Of a stretch of DNA of 57,409 nt, positions 3,865 to 46,971 are shown one piece after another. Under the pieces are notes generated by a model. The model did no database searches. It was not told the origin of the DNA and saw only the letters and a program-made list of their open reading frames with translations. Location: the IMG/VR virus record IMGVR_UViG_3300018049_001835; one strand, written 5' to 3'. Each line of letters begins with the position of its first letter. The stretch's first letter is position 1. The DNA comes from an uncultured virus (IMG/VR IMGVR_UViG_3300018049_001835) (taxonomy: Duplodnaviria; Heunggongvirae; Uroviricota; Caudoviricetes). Made by a program: the position numbers and the translations under genes.

Positions 3865-4158
3865 TTACTTTTTACTAGTTCCGGTGTATAAACCAAACCA
3901 TGCAGCACCAGCACCTACAACAATACTTACAAGTCCTGACTGTTCCATTGTAGGATCTTCAATACCCATGTACCAAATTACAACTTTGTACAGCAAGTAA
4001 ATGTATGTAGTTATAAAAATGCGTGGAAAAATTCTCCAACTGTCAACAGCTTTTGCTAGATCAATCCATGATTGAAATCTATTTTTTGAACTGTCTACTG
4101 TATTTGTATCTACTTCTAGTTCTATGTTTACTTTTTTTGTTTGAATTTCGTCACTCAT
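3865..4158 (-). CDS. Small two-TM membrane protein (possible holin)
   Basis: Two hydrophobic segments and a basic C-terminus. The holin role is inference. Confidence 0.6.
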   Translation of the reverse strand: MSDEIQTKKVNIELEVDTNTVDSSKNRFQSWIDLAKAVDSWRIFPRIFITTYIYLLYKVVIWYMGIEDPTMEQSGLVSIVVGAGAAWFGLYTGTSKK

Positions 4159-4517
4159 TTTTTCTTACCCTCTAATTTCTTAATTCTAGCATCTAGTTCT
4201 GGCCAAACATCAAACTCGTGTAGTTCTTTACATGGATGGCTATGCTTTTCTAGTTTAATAATTCTAGTTTCTAGTTCGTCGATCTTACGGGCTATATTGG
4301 GATTTACTTTACGCCAAGCATGCGGATCTTGGTTAAACCAAGTCCAACCAAACTTGTCTCTAATGCTATCAAGTAACCAATCCCATTTACCGTATGCCCA
4401 AAGCGCAATACGTGTATCTCTAATCCATGCAATGAATAAAGCACCAAAGATACTACCAGCTATTGCTGTATAAATCCATAGACGATCACTCGCCATGCGT
4501 TCTATCATTTCCCACAT
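4155..4517 (-). CDS. Hypothetical membrane protein
   Basis: N-terminal TM and coiled-coil C-terminus. SD GAGGG and ATAAATA (4543-4549) upstream; ATGA overlap with the next gene. Confidence 0.7.
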   Translation of the reverse strand: MWEMIERMASDRLWIYTAIAGSIFGALFIAWIRDTRIALWAYGKWDWLLDSIRDKFGWTWFNQDPHAWRKVNPNIARKIDELETRIIKLEKHSHPCKELHEFDVWPELDARIKKLEGKKK

Positions 4518-5386: not shown

Positions 5387-5580
5387 TCGTATATTATTTT
5401 TATACCTCTACGAATAAGTTCTCGTCTAACTTTATTTTTAATTTTTGGTTTAGCAGATAGACTGTTTAGATATTCTATTAGTTCTTCTTTAGGTGTTTGT
5501 TTTAGATAGAAATGGACCTCTTTGTTTTTACCGGTTGCTTTATCCCTTATTGAATGACTGGGCTTGAATTTTTCCGGCAC
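5383..5580 (-). CDS. Hypothetical basic protein
   Basis: ORF coupled to the iscU stop. Confidence 0.6.
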   Translation of the reverse strand: MPEKFKPSHSIRDKATGKNKEVHFYLKQTPKEELIEYLNSLSAKPKIKNKVRRELIRRGIKIIYE

Positions 5581-6056
5581 TATTTAGGTCCTCCGTTATG
5601 GCCAATCATGCTGTCATCTTTTTTAATCATGCTGTCTAAAAAAGTGCCTTTTCGACCTGCTTTCTTTTCTTCCCAATCTTTAATAGCACGTTGAATACTA
5701 TCTTCTGCTAGTACAGAACAGTGTATTTTGATAGGCGGCAATTCTAATGCTTCAGCAATTTCTTTATCTTTTATCTGCTTTGCTTCTTCGATTGTTTTGC
5801 CGATAAGCATTTCGACAAACATACTACTAGATGCTATTGCACTTCCGCAACCATAAGTTTTAAATTTTACATCTTCTATAACTTCAGTTTCTGGATTAAG
5901 TTTTAGATCTAGTTTCATAACATCACCACATGCAGGAGCACCTGTCATGCCTATAGCAACGTTTGGATCGTTAGGGTCAAACCGACCTACCCCATGAGCG
6001 CCTGGGTTATTTGTAACCTGCTCAAATCGGTCGATTACTTTTTGTGAATATGCCAT
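5580..6056 (-). CDS. iscU: Fe-S cluster scaffold IscU
   Basis: GAPACGDVM, YGCGSAIASSS and LPPIKIHC: three Cys plus the HscA-binding LPP(V/I)K motif. Confidence 0.95.
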   Translation of the reverse strand: MAYSQKVIDRFEQVTNNPGAHGVGRFDPNDPNVAIGMTGAPACGDVMKLDLKLNPETEVIEDVKFKTYGCGSAIASSSMFVEMLIGKTIEEAKQIKDKEIAEALELPPIKIHCSVLAEDSIQRAIKDWEEKKAGRKGTFLDSMIKKDDSMIGHNGGPK

Positions 6057-6082: not shown

Positions 6083-6111
6083 ATTATATAACACTAATGT
6101 ATTTATGTCAA
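6083..6111 (-). promoter_or_regulatory. Perfect sigma70 promoter upstream of iscU
   Basis: TTGACA (6111-6106), N17, TATAAT (6088-6083). ATAAATA lies in the spacer (6100-6106). Confidence 0.8.
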
Positions 6112-6112
6112 C

Positions 6113-6502
6113 CTATTCAGGTTGTGTTTCTTCTTGCTCACTTTCGTAATATTCTTTGTAAGCATCTATAATTCTATTTTGCTTTAGCATGTATGCACGT
6201 ATTTGTGCATAATTCATTCTAAAGTTTTCATAGTTTTCATCGGTCAAACCTATTAGCACAGGGTCAATACCTTTTGCTTCTAGATCTGCAAAAACCTGCT
6301 CTGCATTTTCTCTGTTAATTATAATCCAGCGAACTTCTTCCAGTTGTGCAGGTTCGGGTAGAGGTAAATTTAACGGCTGTCTTGCAACTTCTGTTTTTAA
6401 TACTTCAACTGGCTTGATAGTACTACATCCACTAATAAGGGACGTAGTTAGGATTAGCAAGCTCAGGACAAACAGTGTTGATCTGTGACTTCTTTGTAGC
6501 AT
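6113..6502 (-). CDS. Outer-membrane lipoprotein, o-spanin (Rz1-like)
   Basis: Signal peptide with lipobox ISGC, Pro-rich segment, overlaps the 3' end of the i-spanin gene. Confidence 0.7.
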   Translation of the reverse strand: MLQRSHRSTLFVLSLLILTTSLISGCSTIKPVEVLKTEVARQPLNLPLPEPAQLEEVRWIIINRENAEQVFADLEAKGIDPVLIGLTDENYENFRMNYAQIRAYMLKQNRIIDAYKEYYESEQEETQPE

Positions 6503-6917
6503 TTAACTCCTCTTCGGTTAATTCGGCGCCACCTATTATTTCAAAGCAACGTCTTTCATTAACTTCATCTTTATTTAATATACGCTCTATACTTAATGGT
6601 CTTTCAACTGATAAAGCGCCTATATCTCTTTCTACTCCAGACGCATTCAACTGGTTAAATTTTTCATTTAAATTATTGATATTTGTCTGTAACATTCTAT
6701 TTACATCTTCTAAGTCATTACGTACCTGAGTAATGGCTTCAAAGTCTCTTTGTTGTTGTTCTATTAGTGCTTGTTGTTCCTGTATTCCATCCTCAAGTTT
6801 TACAATATTCATCTTTGCTGTGTCAAGGTCGCTTTGTAACTTCTTGACATACCAGAAGCCACCGCCTGCACTAGCAAGGATAATTAAAAATATTGCAATT
6901 CTTAGACTACTAAACAT
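6432..6917 (-). CDS. Inner-membrane i-spanin (Rz-like)
   Basis: N-terminal TM, long coiled coil and two C-terminal Cys; downstream of the endolysin. Confidence 0.7.
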   Translation of the reverse strand: MFSSLRIAIFLIILASAGGGFWYVKKLQSDLDTAKMNIVKLEDGIQEQQALIEQQQRDFEAITQVRNDLEDVNRMLQTNINNLNEKFNQLNASGVERDIGALSVERPLSIERILNKDEVNERRCFEIIGGAELTEEELNATKKSQINTVCPELANPNYVPY

Positions 6918-7140
6918 TAACGTGTTTGCCTACTACTTCAATTAGATCTTGTACAGTACCAATATCAAATGTTTCCTCTTCTGGAATTTCAATATCAAGT
7001 TTTTTAGTAACTTGCACTACAACATCAACTATATCTATCTCATCTCCGTCTAGATCATCTAAAAAATGACTTGCGGGAGTGAACTCTTTTTCAGCACCGA
7101 AATGATCTTTCAGTACTTGCATAATAACATCTACATACAT
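6910..7140 (-). CDS. acpP: Acyl carrier protein homologue lacking the phosphopantetheine Ser
   Basis: 76 aa, acidic, ACP pattern (F.DDL.GDxxD.V.......LDIEIPEEE...I.TVQDLI), but GDEID replaces (A/G)DSLD. Confidence 0.8.
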   Translation of the reverse strand: MYVDVIMQVLKDHFGAEKEFTPASHFLDDLDGDEIDIVDVVVQVTKKLDIEIPEEETFDIGTVQDLIEVVGKHVNV

Positions 7141-7144
7141 AATT

Positions 7145-8014
7145 TTATCCTAATAGTTCTCCGAGTGTAGCAGGACCAGCAATGCCGTCAGCTACTAGGC
7201 CTTTGCTTGCTTGCCACTCTTTTAATACACGTTCTGTGCCAGGTCCAAAAATACCATCAGCACTAATACCTAGTGCTTCTTGCATCATTTTTACACCTTC
7301 ACCTCTGCAACCTTTGCGGAGCACTCCGATATCATCAATATCAAAGTCATCGTCTCCATTATCATCTGCAATACTTACAGGGTTGCCTAAAATTTCCATT
7401 GCAGATACATAACGTTTTTGACGATCGGCTAACCCAATGTTACCACCGTTAATTTTCTTAGTCATTTTAACAACGTCATCAGTATCAGCAATGCTGTTTA
7501 AGTTGTTTGTATCCCAGAACCAGCATGCTGATTCAACAGCACCTTTTTCTGTAGCAACATACACAGCTGCTTCTTCGGCAGACATATTAACTGATGCTCC
7601 AAACCGTGTATAATTCTCACGTCCAGTTAACTGTTTTAAACCACGACCACGGAACAACCAACCGTCGCCTTCTTTAACATTGCCCATCTTGTATTTACGG
7701 AACTCGTCCATGTATACATAGTTTGCAATTTTCTCTGGGTTTCTTGCATATTCAGCAGCATTACGCTTTGGCGGCGCACCAAAGTAGCGACCAAATACAG
7801 CATTTAATGCTTTTTCACTATAATTTAGATTTTCTTGTAAACTTTTGAAGTTTCCACTTTCATGAGCACATTGACTTAAAAAGTGTGCTACTCTTCGCTT
7901 AGTATTAATTTCATATTTAGGCATAATTGCTATCAAAGCATCATACCACTTATCCACATCTTTATTTCCTGGGATTATTTTTGCAAGGTGATCTCTAGTG
8001 AATTCAAAGTCCAT
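7145..8014 (-). CDS. Endolysin: GH19 (chitinase-like) domain plus C-terminal peptidoglycan-binding domain
   Basis: AHFLSQCAHES, ENLNYS, FRGRGLKQLTGRENY, TKKINGG; PG_binding_1-like DGIFGPGT and DGIAGPAT. Confidence 0.9.
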   Translation of the reverse strand: MDFEFTRDHLAKIIPGNKDVDKWYDALIAIMPKYEINTKRRVAHFLSQCAHESGNFKSLQENLNYSEKALNAVFGRYFGAPPKRNAAEYARNPEKIANYVYMDEFRKYKMGNVKEGDGWLFRGRGLKQLTGRENYTRFGASVNMSAEEAAVYVATEKGAVESACWFWDTNNLNSIADTDDVVKMTKKINGGNIGLADRQKRYVSAMEILGNPVSIADDNGDDDFDIDDIGVLRKGCRGEGVKMMQEALGISADGIFGPGTERVLKEWQASKGLVADGIAGPATLGELLG

Positions 8015-8031: not shown

Positions 8032-8751
8032 CTACTTACGTAGTCTTTCTACAACTAGTGTATTGTTACTATTATCTAGCGATAGTTTATTACCATATTT
8101 AGTAATGTTGTAATCGCCAAGGTATTTACTTAAAAAGATAATTTCAGCAAAATCATCTGTATTAACTCTTTCGTTTATGTTTGCGATAGTGTTTATCGTT
8201 TCTCCAAAATCAATGACTCTAAATTGGATTGGTTCTGCATACACTTTTTTAAGTGTTAGTACGTCACCTGTCATATACGATTCTTCTAAGTAACTTTTGT
8301 TAAAGAAATCTTTGTAATTATTTAGACGTGTTTCTTGGATTTTAATATCGTAAGTATTACTGTCTAATGGAATCTCTTCTGCAAGACTATCTTGCGTAAG
8401 ATCTTTTGATTTAAAATTTTTGTAGTATCTAAATTTTAAACTTTCTATGTCAGACAGTTTACAAACACCGTCTGCAATTTCCATAACTTGTTCTGGAATA
8501 TGTTTTGATCTTTCTACTTCTACAAAAACTTTATATGTGCCATCACTTTGTTCGCCTGGTGTAGCATCAGCATCTAAAACAAAGTCATACCCTTTTTCTA
8601 AAAAATTCATTAGATCATTAGCCGCTTCTTTTTCCTTAACACTAAATGCTAATGTTACTATGTCTTTATCTTCCCCCATTTTTGATTTGAAACTATCAAT
8701 TTCAAAAATGTCGTAGACCATGTTTTTTAAATCTGATTTAAGTAAACCCAT
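8032..8751 (-). CDS. Hypothetical phage protein
   Basis: 239-aa ORF coupled to its neighbours. Confidence 0.7.
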   Translation of the reverse strand: MGLLKSDLKNMVYDIFEIDSFKSKMGEDKDIVTLAFSVKEKEAANDLMNFLEKGYDFVLDADATPGEQSDGTYKVFVEVERSKHIPEQVMEIADGVCKLSDIESLKFRYYKNFKSKDLTQDSLAEEIPLDSNTYDIKIQETRLNNYKDFFNKSYLEESYMTGDVLTLKKVYAEPIQFRVIDFGETINTIANINERVNTDDFAEIIFLSKYLGDYNITKYGNKLSLDNSNNTLVVERLRK

Positions 8752-9263
8752 TAGGCTAATTCTCCTGCTGGTTCAGGTGTTGCTTCTACGTCGGCTTGCT
8801 GTGGCTCTTGTTGTGCTGTTGCTGGAACAGCAGGTTCAGTAACTTGCTCTTTGTAACCACCGTAAATATCTGCAAGTAAACTCTTAGGCATTTCAATGTT
8901 TACAATCCATATAGGTTTACGATCAAGTTTACCTTTTTTAGTGCCGTCACGCATGTCGCTAGGTTTCTTAATTTTACGGGGTACAATTATATCATCTTTT
9001 TGATAAGAAACTTTGCAATCATAATCTACTAAACGCTTGCCACCCATAGGATCTGGCATGTTGTTCCGATCCCACATAAACTTACAAGATACCCAATGTC
9101 TTGTTATATCAGGACCTTGTAATAATTCACCATCTTGCCAGTTATCATATACATACAGGTCTAGTTCATCTAGCACTCTTTCAAAGTCTTTTAAGATTTG
9201 AAACGCCGAATCGCTATTATATATGTTTTCAACATTTTTTATAATATCTAAAGTATCTTGCAT
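8751..9263 (-). CDS. Hypothetical phage protein
   Basis: 170-aa ORF with GGAGAG SD and ATAAATA at 9283-9289. Confidence 0.7.
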   Translation of the reverse strand: MQDTLDIIKNVENIYNSDSAFQILKDFERVLDELDLYVYDNWQDGELLQGPDITRHWVSCKFMWDRNNMPDPMGGKRLVDYDCKVSYQKDDIIVPRKIKKPSDMRDGTKKGKLDRKPIWIVNIEMPKSLLADIYGGYKEQVTEPAVPATAQQEPQQADVEATPEPAGELA

Positions 9264-9388
9264 TTGTACTCTCCGCTATACTTATTTATCGTATTTAAGA
9301 TCATAACAGACAGTTTTTCTCTGCTGATCAAATGGTAAATACTTTTGTACAATATGTCATTGTACACTATTCCATAGGAGGAAACTTA

Positions 9389-10818: not shown

Positions 10819-10987
10819 TAATTTTATCCTCTCCGTATCTTCCACGATCGCGATTCCCGTCGCTATTAAGTTCAGTTATATCTTGCTGTACTTCTTTATA
10901 ATTCTTTTTACCAAAAATACTATTCCAATTATCAGTCATTTGTTTATCGGAAATGTTTTGGGGCCTACGATTACTGCCTTTACTCAT
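10799..10987 (-). CDS. Hypothetical protein
   Basis: ATGA overlap with the ferredoxin stop. Confidence 0.55.
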
Positions 10988-11331
10988 GTTATGTCCTTAA
11001 CCGGTATAATACCGAATTCTTCGTATTTGTTAGGATACTCATCCCATTCTTTTGCATCTGGTAATGGTTCCTTTTGATCTATTATGTTTATGTTCCAATC
11101 AGAAACACGTCTATTAATTTCATCCCACTTTTCTCTAAGTTCTGGACTAAGCTCTGATTCAGATACTATAGCATTAGCAGGACACTCAGGAACACAAACA
11201 CCACAGTCTATGCATTCATCCGGATTAATTGCTAAAAAGTTTTCTGCTTCATAAAAACAATCTACTGGGCAAACAGCTACGCAATCGGTATGCTTGCATT
11301 TAATACAATTATCTGTAACTAGATAGCTCAT
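10984..11331 (-). CDS. fdxA: 7Fe ([3Fe-4S]+[4Fe-4S]) ferredoxin, FdxA type
   Basis: [18 protein letters not shown] and [12 protein letters not shown], as in Azotobacter-type FdI. Confidence 0.9.
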
Positions 11332-46248: not shown

Positions 46249-46623
46249 TTATTTTAGCTCCAAAATTTGTATATTGTCTTCTATGTTATCATTAAAATTA
46301 ACGCTTACGCCGCATCCGCAACTACTTTGAGCGTTAGGATTATTAATAACAAATTGGGTCTGGAATACATCTTTAGAATAATCTACTTCACTTCCAAATA
46401 GATACATTAAACTAGTTGCATCTACTACTAGATTTCCATTATTTGTAGGTATTATTTCGTCATTTACACCTACGTCTTCCTTATTGACCATGCTCCACTC
46501 GTATTCAAATCCTGCACAACCGCCTCCTTTCAGTCCTAAATGCACGGCAAAGTGTTTTGGCTCTACATTGCATAGTTCATCTATTTTTTCTTTGGCTGAT
46601 TTAGTAAGATTTAATACAAACAT
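46249..46623 (-). CDS. iscA: A-type Fe-S carrier (IscA/ErpA/HesB family)
   Basis: GGGCAGFEY and SCGCG.S motifs. Start at ATG 46623 behind AAGGAG. Confidence 0.9.
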   Translation of the reverse strand: MFVLNLTKSAKEKIDELCNVEPKHFAVHLGLKGGGCAGFEYEWSMVNKEDVGVNDEIIPTNNGNLVVDATSLMYLFGSEVDYSKDVFQTQFVINNPNAQSSCGCGVSVNFNDNIEDNIQILELK

Positions 46624-46683
46624 CTGTACTCCTTTAATATATTTATCGATAAGTTTTATAATCCTAATGTAATAAATATAATT

Positions 46684-46971
46684 ATGTTCATAAAAGAATT
46701 TGTTGTACAAACAAGACATGTGAGAACGTCAAAATTAGGTCGTACGCACCCTTACACACGCAAAAAGACCTACGTGTTACTAAGATGTGATAACTGTGAT
46801 AACGAGTTTGAAAGACCTAGAGGCAAGATGGATGCCAAGCGGTTAAGCAACAATTATTTTCATGTGTGTAATGATTGTGATAGCAAAAAATTTGCACAAA
46901 AAAAGGGAGTAGAACAAAAACAGAAATGGAAATTTTCTGCTAGTTCTGATCTCCCTATTAGTAAACTTTAG
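46684..46971 (+). CDS. Small basic putative zinc-binding protein
   Basis: CDNC...CNDC; ATAAATA 5 nt upstream of the ATG. Confidence 0.7.
   Translation: MFIKEFVVQTRHVRTSKLGRTHPYTRKKTYVLLRCDNCDNEFERPRGKMDAKRLSNNYFHVCNDCDSKKFAQKKGVEQKQKWKFSASSDLPISKL

Follow-up and report, generated by a model that had tools for sequence, protein, structure and literature searches.

What could the fold of an acyl carrier protein (ACP) do in a phage lysis cassette when the serine that would carry phosphopantetheine is replaced by glutamate? The question is raised by a small gene product, named here ACP*, encoded in a 57,409-nucleotide stretch of DNA (the window). The window is part of a virus record of 119 kb with an estimated completeness of 33%; the structural genes of this record match those of PA5oct, GAP32, RaK2 and related jumbo phages. 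A preliminary description, made from the sequence alone, regarded ACP* as a non-loadable decoy for host or defence proteins that bind ACP. According to the analysis presented here, ACP* is most likely a working binding protein, with the i-spanin encoded directly downstream as its best-supported partner. The features discussed are collected in Table 1.

Table 1. Features of the ACP* locus (positions in the window)
Feature	Position	Strand	Remarks
ACP-fold protein (ACP*)	6910..7140	minus	76 aa, pI 4.1, without signal or TM segment
Glu34 codon GAG at the phosphopantetheine Ser position	7039..7041	minus	within the predicted interface
AGGA, Shine-Dalgarno-like site 5' of the ACP* start	7148..7151	minus	in the end of the endolysin gene
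i-spanin, 161 aa	6432..6917	minus	phrog_739, E 4e-10; N-terminal TM, long coiled coil, hinge, second helix, Cys124/Cys150
i-spanin codons 86-116, main predicted ACP*-binding surface	6570..6662	minus	complex model
i-spanin surface residues			loop N91-x-x-G94, R97, L102, R106, P107, S109, I110, I113, K116
i-spanin K142-K143-S144, second predicted contact patch	6486..6494	minus	in the o-spanin overlap
o-spanin lipoprotein	6113..6502	minus	phrog_812, E 4e-12; lipobox Cys26, 71-nt overlap with i-spanin
GH19 + PG-binding endolysin without signal segment	7145..8014	minus	swapped or absent in relatives
Pair of virion structural genes (products of 170 and 239 aa) heading the same gene run	8032..9263	minus	common to PA5oct and GAP32
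GATAAATA motif upstream of the run, likely late promoter	9283..9290	minus	in 12/15 relatives inspected
Perfect TTGACA-17-TATAAT site past o-spanin, likely start of a separate iscU transcript	6083..6111	minus	

The ACP* gene and its serine-site residue

The open reading frame and its GAG codon, as first described, are borne out, the coding strand being minus (7140-6910; the plus-strand frame at 6910..7140 is closed). The described position between the endolysin and the i-spanin holds as well: ACP* starts 4 nt past the endolysin stop and shares 8 nt with the i-spanin start (6910-6917). The protein matches the Pfam PP-binding model (PF00550) with 31.2 bits (cut-off 20.8); its score with TIGR00517 is 42.4 (cut-off 70.45), and every NCBIfam ACP model remains below its cut-off. 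The AlphaFold2 model (pLDDT 93) contains four helices (3-14, 34-48, 54-57 and 63-74), and its closest structural matches are ACPs (best Z 13.5, rmsd 1.4 A, 74 residues). The Pfam match, the model and the structural matches confirm the claimed ACP homologue with an ACP-like fold. The four-helix fold is that of bacterial AcpP (PF00550, TIGR00517; PDB 2ehs, 4dxe_H, 4ihf_G), with VIA Z 11.8-13.5 and rmsd 1.4-1.9 A over 71-76 residues for the best 8 matches.

In gap-free alignments with 72 PDB sequences of ACPs (E<=0.001), residues D33-E34-I35-D36 fall on D-S-L-D, and the sole Ser of ACP*, residue 24, lies away from this site, as had been stated. The alignment of Glu34 with the phosphopantetheine Ser, together with the lack of Ser in the gene family, supports the view that the site would be incapable of loading. 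Judged by its sequence, ACP* stands outside AcpP, because the defining Ser is absent.

Among 59 distinct homologous genes the residue is Glu or Asp in 57 and Pro in 2, with no Ser at the site or within 4 residues of it; this set was partly drawn from a scan with the D[ED]xD pattern, and such scans cannot count Ser-bearing relatives. The codons used are GAA (20 genes), GAG (14), GAC (12), GAT (11) and CCG (2). Unbiased counts are provided by scans anchored on the neighbouring i-spanin or v239 genes, which use no ACP motif and are unable to favour Asp or Glu: 34/34 and 16/16 ACP genes, respectively, are without Ser. Four weak partial matches (L040, L041, L009, L010) were excluded from the ACP set. 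All 14 close homologues carry Glu or Asp, and the protein is 100% identical in 4 other IMG/VR contigs, which agrees with the earlier judgement that a sequencing error is improbable. The conservation suggested for homologues is thus found for an acidic residue, not for Glu as such.

Over seven close loci (17 of 21 pairs usable) the median dN/dS of ACP* is 0.12, and the neighbouring genes range from 0.07 to 0.15; an all-pairs estimate (median 0.47, 624 pairs) was saturated and was set aside for close pairs with neighbour controls. Ser-bearing close relatives with relaxed selection on this copy, which the preliminary description named as the opposite outcome, were not found. These comparisons indicate that the gene is under purifying selection and that the acidic substitution at the Ser site is selected.

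Other phage ACPs (phrog_5934; BFVD matches) have the fold in common with ACP*, and Ser is kept in 17/17 domains inspected in other phage records (8 + 9). The 83 records of relatives lacking ACP* contain two Ser-ACPs, at other sites. One ACP* subtype and marine alphaproteobacterial AcpP have a 13-residue stretch in common, found by a search seeded with part of that stretch. The ACP tree (79 columns) separated neither one origin from two nor the possible donors. Direct tblastn against cultured phages gave no match to ACP*, the ESM Atlas returned generic ACP clusters only, and an IscS scan of genomes for the host of the phage gave no match.

Linkage with the i-spanin gene

The first profile scan gave 31 loci, of which 29 have the order endolysin-ACP*-i-spanin-o-spanin; the other two are weak partial matches. 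The endolysin of relatives is GH19, phrog_315 or phrog_894, and in one more distant lineage it is absent, with ACP* still overlapping the i-spanin and both spanins kept. Inserted genes occur upstream of ACP*, none between ACP* and i-spanin in the inspected loci. ACP genes lie directly 5' of the i-spanin in 32/34 cases of the spanin-anchored scan and in 16/16 of the v239-anchored one, as do 35 of the 44 D/E-ACP loci of a metagenome scan. D/E-ACPs without an adjoining spanin are represented by L109-L115, L122, L128, L141 and L436 and by 9/44 metagenome loci (one incomplete).

Viewed from the i-spanin, 32 of 80 loci have ACP* directly upstream, 2 have a Pro variant past the o-spanin, and in the remaining 46 no ACP lies within 2.5 kb. 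All ACP* loci fall into one 69-row subclade of a quick i-spanin tree (35 rows with and 34 without ACP*). No ACP was found in the 268-kb, 75%-complete record of one relative lacking ACP*, and PA5oct and GAP32 are without the module at the matching site. The ACP* gene travels with the i-spanin, not with the endolysin, and is optional; the lysis-cassette link first described is therefore upheld, with the i-spanin as the partner gene that is kept.

Three other relations were rejected. The endolysin as the partner of ACP* is swapped or absent in relatives. A frameshift fusing ACP* to the i-spanin is contradicted by overlaps of 1, 8, 11, 14 and 17 nt, which correspond to two frames. IscS/IscU was rejected since IscS occurs in only 18 loci (several being the same contigs) and is absent from the 119-kb record itself, and iscU stands behind its own perfect sigma-70-type promoter.

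The gene run containing the cassette is preceded by the GATAAATA motif, which has 13 minus-strand occurrences and a single plus-strand one in the whole record. It resembles the T4 late promoter and is likely a late-promoter motif of the clade. Contigs from four RNA libraries cover parts of the cassette, 3 of 4 touching ACP*; they were not counted as expression evidence because their coverage is scattered (also over 9.4-29 kb) and has no strand.

Several observations concern the surroundings of the cassette. In two relatives (L265/L266:3627-3845) a gene resembling ACP, in which Pro replaces the Ser, lies past the o-spanin and not in front of the i-spanin; the cognate i-spanin keeps P107/S109. 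Ser-ACP genes occur elsewhere in a relative whose i-spanin keeps P107/S109 (L401:1480-1704) and between two ribonucleotide reductase genes (L402:1468-1728). A Cys-rich ORF of 46-53 aa (CxxC...C) is located between endolysin and ACP* in one subtype (L117:4865-5008; similar in L118-L142) and has no PHROGs match. Fe-S biogenesis genes for IscU, FdxA and ErpA/IscA-like proteins are present in the window at 5580-6056, 10984-11331 and 46249-46719; some relatives have a full IscS (L022:6064-7281), and some have two IscU copies. Outside the window, the genome contains a gene cluster with radical-SAM-like Cys motifs.

The proximity of ACP and spanin genes in Mimasvirus/Eneladusvirus jumbo phages, which belong to the same broad phage group, has already been pointed out in a passage of PMC7760394. 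The genes are GAP32_159, CBB gp163, XbC2_157 and fHe-Yen9-03 g156. In GAP32, CBB and XbC2 the ACP gene is directly 5' of an i-/o-spanin pair, elsewhere in the genome; in fHe-Yen9-03 it is at the matching position, and the next genes are unannotated. Unlike ACP*, these ACPs keep Ser, mostly have N-terminal extensions and are separated from the next gene by ~75 nt, and the CBB i-spanin has no detectable kinship with the ACP*-linked i-spanin family (hhalign probability 0.2%). For Ackermannviridae, the gene table in PMC11179266 does not place ACP next to genes labelled spanin. The literature covered, outside of which most subscription papers lie, yielded no report of a Ser-less phage ACP or of ACP-spanin binding.

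Predicted complex with the i-spanin

The i-spanin, the mature o-spanin and ACP* were folded together as three chains. The complex model reached ipSAE values of 0.80/0.80/0.79, against 0.00 for the best of 3 controls, with a contact agreement of 100% and a partner pLDDT of at least 91. The score mark is reached by 116/157 solved complexes and 2/215 mismatched pairs, and 7/44 blind neighbour pairs passed it; these counts are only a rough calibration, because three chains were folded here and the alignments were custom-made, with 13/14 i-spanin rows taken from loci that carry ACP*. The controls contained no normal ACP, and attraction between any acidic helix and a basic patch may account for the score; docking of ACP helix II on basic patches is a common mode in solved complexes.

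Confident contacts connect ACP* residues 11-16, 25-28, 31-42 and 54-61 (E34 included) with i-spanin residues 86-116, 142-148 and 161. On ACP* they involve the start of helix II (D33, E34, I35, D36, V38, D39), His13, loop I and helix III; there are no confident contacts with the o-spanin. A single-chain model of the i-spanin (pLDDT 74, pTM 0.30) assigns the contacted region to the linker after helix 3-87 and to the start of helix 108-128. Neither sequence searches nor Foldseek revealed a solved relative of the i-spanin; recall of this exact complex by the model is therefore unlikely. Binding of ACP* to the i-spanin, as predicted, is judged somewhat more likely than not.

The predicted interface was compared between i-spanins with and without ACP*. 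The hinge loop N91-x-x-G94 with R97 is present in 35/35 paired i-spanins, in 32/34 sisters lacking ACP* and in 0/36 outer-clade sequences; K143 with S/T144 is found in 35 paired, 31 sister and 0 outer-clade sequences. His13 of ACP* pairs with N91 in 35/35. Other contact residues differ in frequency between the paired rows and those lacking ACP*: S109, the closest contact (31/35 vs 14/34), P107 (30/35 vs 9/34), I113 (29/35 vs 13/34) and K116 (25/35 vs 5/34). These four positions were chosen after viewing the table, and hence a test over all 76 positions of the C-domain was added.

In this permutation test predicted contacts relax more than other positions in the rows without ACP* (p=0.002), and they make up 7 of the 8 C-domain positions that relax most; the rows without ACP* are less diverged overall. 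A tree-aware count of changes, made on a tree from which the contact columns had been left out, is weaker, with an odds ratio of 1.4 (p=0.033) for the C-domain, p=0.054 outside the o-spanin overlap and 0.11 for the whole periplasmic part. Conservation in the paired rows is no higher at contact columns than elsewhere (p=0.22 and 0.60). Among 22 further ACP*-paired i-spanins from metagenomes, many of them near known lineages, 20 keep S/T109. These sequence comparisons lend the binding modest, partly independent support.

Possible roles of ACP* in lysis

In the lambda prototype the C-terminal part of the i-spanin is periplasmic, as described in the spanin survey PMC6139136. The cassette resembles the overlapped Rz/Rz1 spanins of lambda (PMC6139136) in the N-terminal TM segment of the i-spanin, its two helical regions with a linker, the lipoprotein o-spanin, the overlapping genes and the probably periplasmic Cys residues; unlike these, it has a soluble ACP-fold gene coupled in front, the product of which is predicted to bind the linker. 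The main text of the survey does not contain 'acyl carrier', and a section of it describes spanins as one- or two-component machines restrained only by peptidoglycan (PMC6139136). The present i-spanin has a hydropathy of 1.82 at residues 1-19 and a helix at 3-87 followed by the linker, and the lipobox Cys of the o-spanin is found in 15/15 aligned rows. Cys124 and Cys150 co-occur in 94 rows and are both missing from 11, which favours a periplasmic disulfide; the charges flanking the TM segment are ambiguous for N-in/C-out topology. By analogy with lambda, the predicted contact site is probably periplasmic. ACP* has no signal, and therefore the two proteins could meet only after holin opening or before export of the i-spanin; this topology is the chief argument against the predicted binding.

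A signal-less endolysin should need large holin lesions. Since the 76-residue ACP* could also pass lesions of endolysin size, binding after holin opening is inferred. No holin was identified, which ACP* would have to bind as a putative cytoplasmic antiholin of the T4 RIII kind; the only TM candidates are two small unannotated proteins (3865-4158 and 4155-4517), often encoded after the spanins and missing from the cassette in one ACP* lineage.

The preferred reading, to which we assign slightly less than an even chance, is an optional third spanin subunit, binding the hinge after holin opening, that times or assists outer-membrane fusion. ACP* would be made late, translationally coupled to the i-spanin, and held in the cytoplasm until it could exit through holin lesions alongside the signal-less endolysin. 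Released ACP* would bind the linker between the two coiled-coil helices, the expected fold-back point of the spanin, and as an optional third subunit would time or assist spanin-driven fusion. The loss of Ser may keep ACP* away from host fatty-acid traffic and a cofactor arm out of the interface with the i-spanin. If this is true, an ACP-fold hinge partner would add a third component to a machine that has been known with two, would bring a soluble protein into the control of phage lysis as a new point of regulation, and would make the fold-back step in membrane fusion more accessible to study; a Ser-less phage ACP look-alike would also have a concrete candidate partner.

The hinge loop is kept in 32/34 sisters despite the missing ACP* gene. 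An extended version of the preferred reading, rather unlikely in our estimate, holds that the loop of this i-spanin lineage reads ACP as a signal of cytoplasmic leakage, from host ACP in some phages and, in others, from an acpP that was captured, lost its serine and became a private third spanin subunit. The use of abundant host ACP would explain the loop in the sisters. Escape of ACP through holin lesions would license fusion of both membranes, and Ser-ACP genes beside the unrelated Mimasvirus/Eneladusvirus spanins could be a parallel case.

The decoy reading depends on the surface of ACP*, which was compared between 33 non-redundant family members and 123 Ser-bearing matches. E. coli numbering is used here, offset by 2 from ACP* numbering, with anchor positions from PMC3340395. 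The family is similar to AcpP in its acidic surface, keeping D30/D31/L32, D35, D38, V40, an acid at 41 and T64-V65. Unlike AcpP, it has no Ser36, and further changes are L37 to F/I, A59 to T/E and E60 to F/A; the acyl-pocket positions, considered as residues only, change at A59 (T/E) and F50 (L/T). In the recognition helix, helix II, D35, D38 and E41 are kept and M44 and E47 are not: Met44 falls from 80% in Ser-ACPs to 9% in the family (V/I instead; V in ACP*), and Glu47, variable in the family, from 98% to 42% (T in ACP*). The patch made up of the first half of helix II and the loop-I acids exceeds its Ser-ACP counterpart in acidity (-6.1 vs -4.7), and the C-terminal half of the helix is neutralised (net charge of positions 45-49 from -2.0 to 0).

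A late, permanent apo-ACP decoy could occupy host acyltransferases, Fab/Lpx enzymes, AcpS and MukB and slow envelope lipid synthesis before lysis. The retained D35, D38, E/D41 and loop-I acids, the more acidic patch and the recurrence of D/E-ACPs in unrelated phage contexts speak for it. Passages in the literature describe apo-ACP as a strong inhibitor of glycerol-3-phosphate acyltransferase (PMC3896788, where the acpS/acpH wording is confused) and as equal to holo-ACP in stimulation of MukB (PMC8602292). On the other side, SpoT reportedly does not bind apo-ACP (PMC3896788). In the experiments cited from PMC3340395, an E. coli ACP with the M44I mutation gave no two-hybrid signal for FabZ, FabA or PlsX and no longer pulled down with MukB; this mutant still supported growth. 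The loss of docking residues for host enzymes, as read from the alignment, weakens a broad decoy of fatty-acid enzymes and is compatible with a narrow one. The patch predicted to contact the i-spanin is retained in the same alignment, which speaks for the i-spanin as partner. The decoy also leaves unexplained the constant overlap with the i-spanin and the relaxed i-spanin residues. It is thus considered unlikely: of the host targets originally proposed, ACP partners in general are less supported, with Met44 and Glu47 largely lost and the i-spanin as the better-supported partner.

The complex model and the linkage would agree equally with binding of the same i-spanin surface in the cytoplasm, where ACP* could act as a chaperone or anti-spanin on the i-spanin before export and limit or delay active spanin complexes. 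Coupling puts ACP* first, and both proteins begin in the cytoplasm. However, the site joins residues 86-116 and 142-148, which requires a folded C-domain, probably with its disulfide bond, and type II membrane proteins are usually inserted co-translationally. Cytoplasmic action is accordingly quite improbable in our view.

Still less credible is ACP* as an adaptor for another phage protein (a virion or assembly protein, a holin or IscS), located beside the spanins only through a shared late transcript. IscS does follow the o-spanin in some relatives, and ACP was detected by mass spectrometry in Eneladusvirus virions according to a passage of PMC7760394. In L109-L115 (e.g. L112:4947-5162), from related phages, a D/E-ACP gene is flanked by genes for a virion structural protein (phrog_11591) and a tail sheath/stabiliser protein; these records are fragments, and neither the i-spanin profile nor the v239 profile has a match in them. 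Yet the upstream structural genes are split from ACP* by insertions and are also present without it, many ACP* loci lack IscS and the holin candidates, and iscU has a promoter of its own. The view that the gene is a captured acpP in decay, or that its Glu codon is a sequencing error, for which the absence of the gene from many sister lineages might speak, is already refuted by the identical copies in 4 contigs, the use of all four acidic codons and a dN/dS within the range of the neighbours, the ORFs also being intact.

Further homologues of ACP that carry P, K, D or E in place of the Ser are P0093, P0097, P0113, P0022, P0023, P0053, P0087, P0139 and P0146. A weak ACP-fold match (E 0.45, probability 0.80) was observed in a 411-aa 'lysis inhibitor' of Aeromonas phage 65.2 (BFVD A0A219YCR2).
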